19,841 bases of DNA from a virus (taxonomy: Duplodnaviria; Heunggongvirae; Uroviricota; Caudoviricetes). How positions within the stretch are numbered: position 1 is the stretch's first letter; the number at the start of each line of letters is the position of its first letter. A program made the translations under genes and the position numbers. The notes beneath the pieces were generated by a model. It saw only the letters and a program-made list of their open reading frames with translations, was not told the DNA's origin and did no database searches. The stretch lies in IMG/VR virus record IMGVR_UViG_2541047915_000006; one strand, given 5' to 3'. Positions 5,198 through 6,819 of the stretch are shown here, in pieces.

Positions 5198-5377
5198 TCA
5201 GGCGGCCTTGATAGTCATATCATCTGAATCAAATATTCCTGATGTATCGATATCGGTAATTCTTATTCCTTCACTACCATCCATTGGAGGCCATCCTTCC
5301 TGACCATTTCCATCATTCCAGTCGAACTCACACACAACACCATATGCATTTAAGTCGCTTGAAATTGCTATAAGCAG
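5198..5377 (-). pseudogene. ea10: ea10 3' fragment (C-terminal 58-59 codons), separated from its 5' part by IS911
   Basis: Reading frame continues the 6628..6819 fragment once the IS and one copy of the CAG duplication are removed. Combined length is 122 aa, as for lambda Ea10. Confidence 0.75.
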
Positions 5378-5407
5378 TGAAGTGGTCAACAAAAACTGGC
5401 CACCGAG

Positions 5408-6226
5408 TTAGAGTTTTTTCCAGTATCGATTTTCCGATTCGTTTGGTGGTAACCCACCATTATATTCGTGCGGTCTTAGTGCGCTGTAATATCCAACGAT
5501 ATAGTCCGTTATTGCGTGAGCTGCATCGCTGAAGCTTACATAGCCCGTCGCCGGCACCCATTCGTTCTTCAGACTCCTGAAGAAGCGCTCCATTGGGCTG
5601 TTATCCCAGCAGTTTCCACGCCGACTCATACTCTGCCTGATCCGGTATCTCCACAGTAACTGCCGGAACTGCCTGCTCGTATAATGACTGCCTTGATCGC
5701 TGTGGAACATCACCCCGACGGGCTTACCACGGGTTTCCCATGCCATTTCCAGTGCTTTCATGGTAAGCCTGCTGTCCGGCGAGAACGACATGGCCCAGCC
5801 CACTGGTTTTCTTGCGAACAGGTCGAGAACAACGGCGAGGTACGCCCAGCGCTTACCCGTCCAGATATAGGTCACATCACCGCACCACACCTGATTTGGC
5901 TCGGTCACGGCGAACTGCCGTTCAAGGTAGTTAGGGATAGCAACATGTTCATGACCACCACGTTTATACCGGTAAGTCGGCTGCTGACAGCTGACCAGCC
6001 CCAGCTCTTTCATGAGTCTGCCAGCAAGCCAGCGCCCCATCTGGTAGCCTCTCTGGGTTGCCATTGTGGCGATGCTTCTTGCTCCGGCAGAGCCGTGGCT
6101 GATGCCATGCAGTTCAAGTACCTGGCTGCGTAATACAGCCCGTCTGCCGTCTGGCTTTTCAGGACGGTTTTTCCAGTATTTGTAGCTGCTGCGATGGACC
6201 CCGAACACATGGCAGAGAGTGGCCAC
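5408..6226 (-). CDS. IS911 transposase OrfB (DDE catalytic domain); probably made as an OrfAB fusion by -1 frameshifting
   Basis: IS3-family integrase-core signature (...[18 protein letters not shown]...[10 protein letters not shown]...[15 protein letters not shown]...). ORF shown from its first ATG; the real product likely starts in orfA. Confidence 0.85.
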
Positions 6227-6252
6227 AGGATAACGCGCCCTGAGTTTCCCGA

Positions 6253-6555
6253 TTATCGAGAACTGTTCAGGGAGTCTGACATCAAGAGCGCGGTAGCCTT
6301 TTTTAATATTTCATTTTCCATTTCAATACGTTGTAGCTTTTTCCTGAGCTCACGGATTTCAATTTGTTCCGGGGTAATAGGGGAGGCTTTTGGTGTTTTT
6401 CCCTGCCGCTCATCACGTAATTGTTTCACCCATCGCGTCATTGTGGAAAGGCCGACATCCATAGCGCTGGCTGCATCTGCCACGGTGTAATTCTGGTCAA
6501 CGACCAGTTGAGCGGATTCGCGTTTAAACTCTGCGCTGAAATTTCTTTTTTTCAT
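6253..6555 (-). CDS. IS911 OrfA (HTH/leucine-zipper transposase subunit, 100 aa)
   Basis: [29 protein letters not shown]... matches the IS911 OrfA (InsN-type). Start taken at the ATG at 6555 rather than the upstream in-frame ATG at 6591. Confidence 0.85.
6298..6304 (-). other. Programmed -1 ribosomal frameshift heptamer A-AAA-AAG of IS911
   Basis: Minus-strand sequence TTAAAAAAGG near the 3' end of orfA, in the orfA/orfB overlap window. Confidence 0.7.
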
Positions 6556-6627
6556 TATGGCACCTGTGTTGTTCTGAGGTGAGCATATCACCTCTGTTCA
6601 GGTGGCCAAATTCAGTAAACCACTTCA

Positions 6628-6819
6628 CAGAGCATGTTGCGCCAGCATGATTAATACAGCATTTAATACAGAGCCGTGTTTATTGAGTCGGTATTCAGAG
6701 TCTGACCAGAAATTATTAATCTGGTGAAGTTTTTCCTCTGTCATTACGTCATGGTCAATTTCAATTTCTATTGATGCTTTCCAGTCGTAATCAATGATGT
6801 ATTTTTTGATGTTTGACAT
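6628..6819 (-). pseudogene. ea10: ea10 5' fragment (first 64 codons), interrupted by IS911
   Basis: MSNIKKYIIDYDWKASIEIEIDHDV... The reading frame runs straight into the IS911 end at 6627, where an IS-borne stop terminates it. Confidence 0.75.

Follow-up and report, generated by a model that had tools for sequence, protein, structure and literature searches.

An ISEc52 insertion in the ea10 gene of a lambda-like prophage adjoining icd in Escherichia coli

A lambda-like prophage of Escherichia coli carries an insertion sequence (IS) in the middle of ea10, a gene of its early left operon. The locus raises the question of what the element is and how recently it arrived, whether it can still move, and what it does to the genes transcribed after it. 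The analysis was made on a stretch of 19,841 nucleotides, hereafter the window, which had previously received a first-pass annotation based on its sequence. Our reading, which we hold with high confidence, is that a full-length ISEc52 jumped recently, in this strain, between codons 64 and 65 of ea10 in a lambda-like prophage next to icd, and that the effects on downstream genes should be small.

Extraction of the junctions from the window defined an IS3-family element of exactly 1250 bp on the minus strand, with TG...CA termini (TGAAGTGG...CCACTTCA; Table 1). The left junction reads ...GCTATAAGCAG and then, across the boundary, TGAAGTGGTCAAC..., and the right junction reads ...AAACCACTTCA and then, across the boundary, CAGAGCATG. 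The two ends are inverted repeats of each other, imperfect in that 25 of 36 positions agree, so the repeats that the first-pass annotation had described are present on re-examination. A directly repeated CAG flanks the element, whereas lambda has a single copy of CAG at the same site. The clean 3-bp target duplication that had been proposed is thus found, and the span given for the feature, 5375-6630, is correct as the IS together with both CAG triplets. The insertion is confirmed as a real feature, far beyond what chance would produce.

Table 1 Features of the ISEc52 insertion and its surroundings in the window, and ISEc52 insertions in related prophages
Feature	Position or location	Strand or orientation	Basis or remark
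Complete ISEc52 (IS3 family, IS911-like), 1250 bp	5378..6627	-	Junctions and 100% identity to PGAP-labelled ISEc52 copies
IRL, orfA-proximal end, TGAAGTGGTTTACTGAATTTGGCCACCTGAACAGAG	6592..6627	-	End comparison, alignment to IS911 copy
IRR, read inward TGAAGTGGTCAACAAAAACTGGCCACCGAGTTAGAG	5378..5413	-	Same as IS911 IRR in aligned copy
Target-site duplication copy 1, CAG (coding strand CTG/Leu)	5375..5377	.	Window sequence
Target-site duplication copy 2, CAG = ea10 codon 64	6628..6630	.	Window sequence
ea10 5' fragment, codons 1-64	6628..6819	-	Stop is TGA from the IS terminus (6625-6627)
ea10 3' fragment, codons 65-122 and stop, duplicated CTG ahead	5198..5377	-	Excision analysis
orfA, 100 aa, HTH_Tnp_1	6253..6555	-	PF01527 E=6e-14
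OrfAB coding span, 382 aa after -1 frameshift, rve/DDE core	5408..6555	-	PF00665 E=1e-31
A AAA AAG slippery heptamer, IS nt 324-330, in orfA/orfB overlap (0/-1 phases)	6298..6304	-	Same motif in IS911
Predicted three-way-junction RNA, 3' of slippery site	6205..6297	-	MFE -32 kcal/mol, z=-2.8
Antiterminator N, 90 aa, intact	8014..8286	-	PF25694 E=1.5e-32
Candidate nutL: boxA-like GCTCTTTAA, small hairpin, boxB-like UGGCUGAAAAGCCA	8383..8429	-	Sequence pattern
Candidate nutR, after cro, same layout	11067..11113	+	Sequence pattern; stem UCGCUGAAAAGCGA
Intrinsic terminator tL2a / 3' end of sRNA LPR1, directly upstream of ea10	6846..6867	-	Identical to lambda 33931-33952
Terminator-like hairpin and T-run, between ea10 and cIII	5156..5173	-	Consensus scan only
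cIII thermoregulator RNA, intact, 240 bp downstream of IS	5080..5138	-	RF01804, 88.5 bits, E=9e-21
ISEc52 insertion, ATCC 25922/M16807	Between ral and sieB		ATT duplication
ISEc52 insertion, ATCC 25922/M16807	DUF1382 gene	Opposite	CAT duplication
ISEc52 insertion, AHB22	sieB		TAG duplication
ISEc52 insertion, LHM10-1	Between ral and N		TTT duplication
ISEc52 insertion, BEC1-S17	Abuts deletion ea10 to sieB		No duplication
ISEc52 insertion, Ec40743	Abuts deletion ral to ylcG		No duplication
ISEc52 insertion, E5	Abuts deletion ea10 to rusA		No duplication

The identity of the interrupted gene follows from the same junctions. Removal of 5378-6630 in silico leaves 369 nt, that is, 122 codons and a stop; one extra Leu results if both CAGs are kept, and the frame is lost when the cut is shifted by one or two bases. 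The restored protein is identical to lambda Ea10 (NP_040621.1) at 122 of 122 residues, the DNA at 367 of 369 positions, and the protein matches DUF2528 (PF10800 E=2e-47). The prediction that excision would restore ea10 in frame is therefore borne out, and the gene order agrees with the placement of the locus between ral and cIII in the pL operon. Sequence, length and position all assign the gene to Ea10/DUF2528. The exact 64-aa Ea10 product that the interrupted gene would yield is annotated in GCA_000460795.1. As a consequence of the insertion, Ea10 is cut to 64 residues and the prophage has gained 1253 bp. The gene is a dispensable DUF2528 gene, and the window copy is a natural knockout of a gene whose protein otherwise equals that of lambda.

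Codon 64 was also considered as a shared hotspot, because a look-up of the 64-aa product returned many contigs that end there. This candidate was rejected: in five of the nine contigs (L006-L010) the next base is C, as at the empty site, where the IS would give T. The other four (L011-L014) break off no later than the codon-64 junction and are uninformative. The contigs come from unrelated assemblies, including a gut metagenome, and end no more than one base away from codon 64; two of them belong to different prophages within one assembly. Such ends most likely arise because the look-up demanded an exact 64-aa product and so picked out fragments at contig ends, and a mosaic or repeat boundary may lie at ea10 codon 64.

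Across its full 1250 bp the element shows 100% identity to copies on numerous E. coli chromosomes and plasmids, which carry the PGAP label 'IS3-like element ISEc52 family transposase'. Against copies annotated as IS911, nucleotide identity is 94.2% for that of a Shigella dysenteriae NCTC 9718 plasmid (1178/1250; 72 differences) and 94.9% for that of phage Sf6. By the ISfinder convention, isoforms share about 95% nucleotide identity or more, and both values fall below this limit. For these reasons we use the name ISEc52 and not IS911. The window copy differs in no detected position from ISEc52; the insertion site alone is particular to the strain.

That the element is instead IS911 proper, and not a separately named IS, is very improbable. 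The two are of equal length, with an identical IRR, the same slippery heptamer and the same downstream sequence; OrfA is identical at 99 of 100 residues and OrfAB differs by about 12 residues (about 96% identity). Such closeness would be expected of one element, but nucleotide identity to the IS911 copies stays short of that to the ISEc52-labelled ones, and nt 9-11 of the IRL differ. Based on its sequence, the element is best described as ISEc52, a catalogued member of the IS3 group within the IS3 family; it is a named sibling of IS911 and its nearest relative, with IS911 architecture and a presumed IS911 mechanism. The marks of an IS911-like member of the IS3 family were all found: the length and TG..CA ends, overlapping orfA and orfB, HTH and rve domains and a 3-bp duplication. 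To these is added a predicted three-way junction, nearly identical in sequence to that of IS911, as a structured-RNA stimulator. The first-pass annotation had named a complete IS911. Its ends, orfA/orfB and slippery site are indeed all present, so that the name holds for an IS911-type element although not for IS911 in the strict sense.

Whether the insertion is recent was assessed from its genomic context. The window matches scaffold KE702029.1 of GCA_000460795.1 with 0 mismatches over 14,819 bp, both junctions included. As this source is a draft scaffold, a single assembly supports the placement, with the contig carried by two samples. The prophage adjoins icd in E. coli, and in the sister strain AHB22 it has a full lambda-like set of head and tail genes. 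The ea10 insertion occurs in none of 5,426 complete E. coli genomes, and the viral contigs of IMG/VR contain no match to its junction 28-mer. The uninterrupted ea10 site is present in 1,461 complete genomes (at least 80% coverage) and also in lambda, 434 and many Stx phages. Nineteen complete genomes that appeared to share the insertion in multi-piece BLAST matches were rejected, as the joins are non-collinear and the annotated regions show the IS elsewhere.

Two strains carry the same prophage. In CEA212U it lies by icd without ISEc52 and shows 0 base differences over 18,302 bp when compared with the window after removal of the IS. In AHB22 the IS is in sieB and the prophage differs from the window by one SNP, a single G/T difference at window position 15368 (rusA), which is the only substitution once the IS is set aside; here the window shares the CEA212U allele. 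Since the window and AHB22 are equal in length and differ almost solely in the position of the IS, the window was considered as a possible edited copy of AHB22; this was rejected on account of the SNP at 15368 and of the exact match to a public scaffold. The comparison with related strains that had been suggested thus finds the ea10 site empty in CEA212U (identical over 18.3 kb), in AHB22 and in lambda. Because one prophage is identical and IS-free and another is a single SNP away, the insertion is younger than the very recent common ancestor of these prophages. The earlier proposal of a recent insertion gains from these otherwise identical prophages with an empty ea10 site, and that the insertion is recent and strain-specific is well supported by the sequence comparisons. 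As an insertion at this site is shared by none of the 5,426 complete E. coli genomes, it is a useful strain marker.

A draft assembly might have misplaced the IS, with the real copy lying elsewhere, for example in sieB as in AHB22. The junction is indeed found only in one draft scaffold and one duplicate sample, and the closest complete genome has its IS in sieB. However, both junctions are base-perfect with a 3-bp duplication of a sequence that is single-copy in lambda, and sieB in the window shows the empty site intact, with TAG present once only. We consider an assembly artefact extremely improbable because the collapse of a repeat would not give rise to a duplicated target.

The same prophage carries further features of its own. 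An ompC-like porin gene lies between Q and the lysis genes (16329-17411) and iss, a homologue of bor, lies after Rz (19202-19495); both are typical lysogenic-conversion cargo. A second, different IS3-family element (WP_102384962.1, programmed frameshift) begins right after iss (19556-19841), between the lysis cassette and the terminase genes. At its junction CEA212U has 112 extra bases, so that the element either inserted elsewhere or caused a small adjacent deletion. It may have an effect on cos or on the integrity of the late genes, and on whether the prophage can be induced. A ZapA-like gene (2378-2589), which lies between xis and the small ORFs near exo (DUF1382/DUF1317), carries a frameshift in the annotation of AHB22 and CEA212U alike; it is either a pseudogene common to both or contains a recoding site that has gone unrecognised.

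Given a complete element, its capacity to move depends on its genes and ends. The orfB frame, -1 relative to orfA, is open as far as 5408 and overlaps orfA, and OrfAB has candidate catalytic residues D227, D287 and E323, spaced by 60 and 36 residues. No Rfam family matched the frameshift element of the IS, the sole Rfam match in the window being the cIII thermometer. A three-way junction is the reported frameshift stimulator of IS911 (PMC5009743), and IS911 serves as the model for copy-out-paste-in transposition via a circular intermediate with an IRR-IRL junction (PMC1636345). By analogy with IS911, the window element would follow the same copy-out-paste-in route. OrfAB transposase would be made by -1 frameshifting at A AAA AAG and would copy the element out as a circle, and the circle would be pasted into a target cut with a 3-bp stagger, from which the CAG duplication would result.

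Two changes relative to IS911 fall in places that may matter for expression. The SD-like GGAG upstream of the IS911 slippery site is GGAA in the window element (6314-6317, minus strand; IS nt 311-314), which might lower frameshifting. In the IRL, nt 9-11 are CAC in IS911 and TTT here, so that nt 9-14 change from CACACT to TTTACT (6615-6619 are IRL nt 9-13). We take nt 9-14 to be the expected -10 of the circle-junction promoter, at a 17-bp spacing from TTGACC in the IRR. Together, the two changes could alter transposase expression.

The GGAA stimulator would be in keeping with a copy that is structurally complete yet immobile, a dead passenger of the prophage. This is nevertheless very unlikely, given that the same GGAA is common to all of the copies with 100% identity, whose locations are many and varied, that at least five clean insertions with duplications of their own are found in near-identical prophages, and that the ORFs and ends are intact. 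Judging from these intact ORFs and ends, from the many sites at which identical copies are found and from studies of IS911, the window copy is probably still transposition-competent.

ISEc52 was met repeatedly in this part of related genomes. At least eight independent insertions, that of the window included, were seen in the early-left region of related lambdoid prophages, with few genomes inspected. The seven sister insertions (Table 1) were met while checking false matches (loci L001, L002, L003, L019, L020 and L021; window positions 5198-7997). Seven of the eight lie between ea10 and N, three of these in the 369-bp ea10, and seven of the eight are co-oriented with pL. A clean 3-bp duplication accompanies five (CAG, TAG, ATT, TTT and CAT); the three that have none abut deletions removing sieB, immunity or replication genes. 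The GC content of the segment is 0.39-0.43 (AT-rich), compared with 0.51-0.53 for the IS. These observations raise the tentative possibility, which we regard as rather unlikely, that the ea10-ral-sieB segment is a preferred, orientation-biased landing zone for ISEc52 and that insertions there may seed prophage decay. That dispensable DNA simply tolerates insertions would suffice as the alternative explanation. A hotspot is not claimed, because this region was itself the query by which the sample was obtained and the ascertainment bias is large.

The remaining question is the effect on the pL operon. The IS is co-oriented with pL, with orfA preceding orfB on the minus strand. The N gene is intact, and two segments of the window look like nutL and nutR (Table 1): both have the layout boxA, short hairpin, TACGU and boxB with a GAAAA loop, and the two boxB stems differ by a compensatory swap of G-C and C-G (CGCU/AGCG in nutR). 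An annotated 60-aa 'hypothetical protein' (8264-8446) may be a spurious gene call, since it contains the candidate nutL. With an intact N and candidate nut sites, the locus appears to belong to an N-antiterminated pL operon. The phage 434 record lists the tL2a site as a terminator, and the IS leaves it undisturbed; the hairpin upstream of ea10 has been described as tL2a and as the 3' end of the sRNA LPR1 (bioRxiv 10.1101/2024.10.31.621285). Within the IS, the scan found no terminator-like site on the minus (transcribed) strand. Nor did it find a minus-strand promoter-like site at the IRR/ea10 junction, where a hybrid outward promoter could possibly have driven cIII in the lysogen, and the flank has no good -10 candidate at 16-18 bp from TTGACC in the IRR.

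IS insertions are classically polar in ordinary operons, and the first-pass annotation suggested that this one may be polar on cIII-kil-gam-bet-exo during induction, an idea against which the evidence speaks. Strong polarity at induction would here silence cIII, kil, gam, bet, exo, xis and int, crippling recombination and excision. Translation of Ea10 ends at the IS and orfB is translated only after the frameshift, and about 900 nt of weakly translated RNA could load Rho. N is reportedly able to relieve the polarity of IS insertions (Adhya et al. 1974). The pL operon, moreover, is read by N-modified polymerase and both N and the candidate nut sites are intact, native terminators flank ea10 so that N is already required there, and no intrinsic terminator-like site lies on the transcribed strand within the IS. 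Complexes modified by lambda N resist both intrinsic and Rho-dependent termination (PMC12360218). In addition, the plaque-forming phages Sf6, SfII and SEN22 carry elements of the IS911/ISEc52 type, and plaque formation requires none of the pL genes that follow N (PMC10695390).

Because tL2a lies directly upstream of ea10, polymerases that reach ea10 and the IS must already be N-modified. The effect on cIII, kil, gam, bet, exo, xis and int is expected to be small, as transcripts at the IS would already be antiterminated by N. Silencing of the downstream genes therefore appears unlikely from the sequence, and a small effect is the reading that we prefer. Some Rho-dependent loss across the approximately 900 nt of poorly translated orfB may occur, and polarity of the IS is plausible where N does not act. 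Since the IS points the same way as pL, orfA and orfB should be transcribed from pL upon induction. The same prophage is available without the IS as well as with it in ea10, in sieB, or between ral and sieB. Such an isogenic series could gauge how far an IS3-family element perturbs an N-antiterminated operon, and could show whether read-through from pL raises the expression of transposase when the prophage is induced.

Neither the element nor its mechanism nor the gene is new, and this is an ordinary strain-specific insertion, of little import beyond bookkeeping. Compared with lambda, the gene order ral - tL2a - ea10 - cIII is common to both and the window copy of ea10 is broken after codon 64. 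With IS911 the window element shares the length of 1250 bp, the TG..CA ends, an identical IRR, an OrfA of 100 aa and an OrfAB of 382 aa, together with A AAA AAG, the downstream three-way junction and the 3-bp duplication (PMC1636345, PMC5009743). Shigella phages Sf6 and SfII (IS911) and Salmonella phage SEN22 (ISEc52-like) carry the same kind of IS within temperate lambdoid or P22-like genomes, which entered the databases as phage records. The sites differ, lying in the nin region in Sf6, in the antirepressor region in SEN22 and in ea10 in the window.
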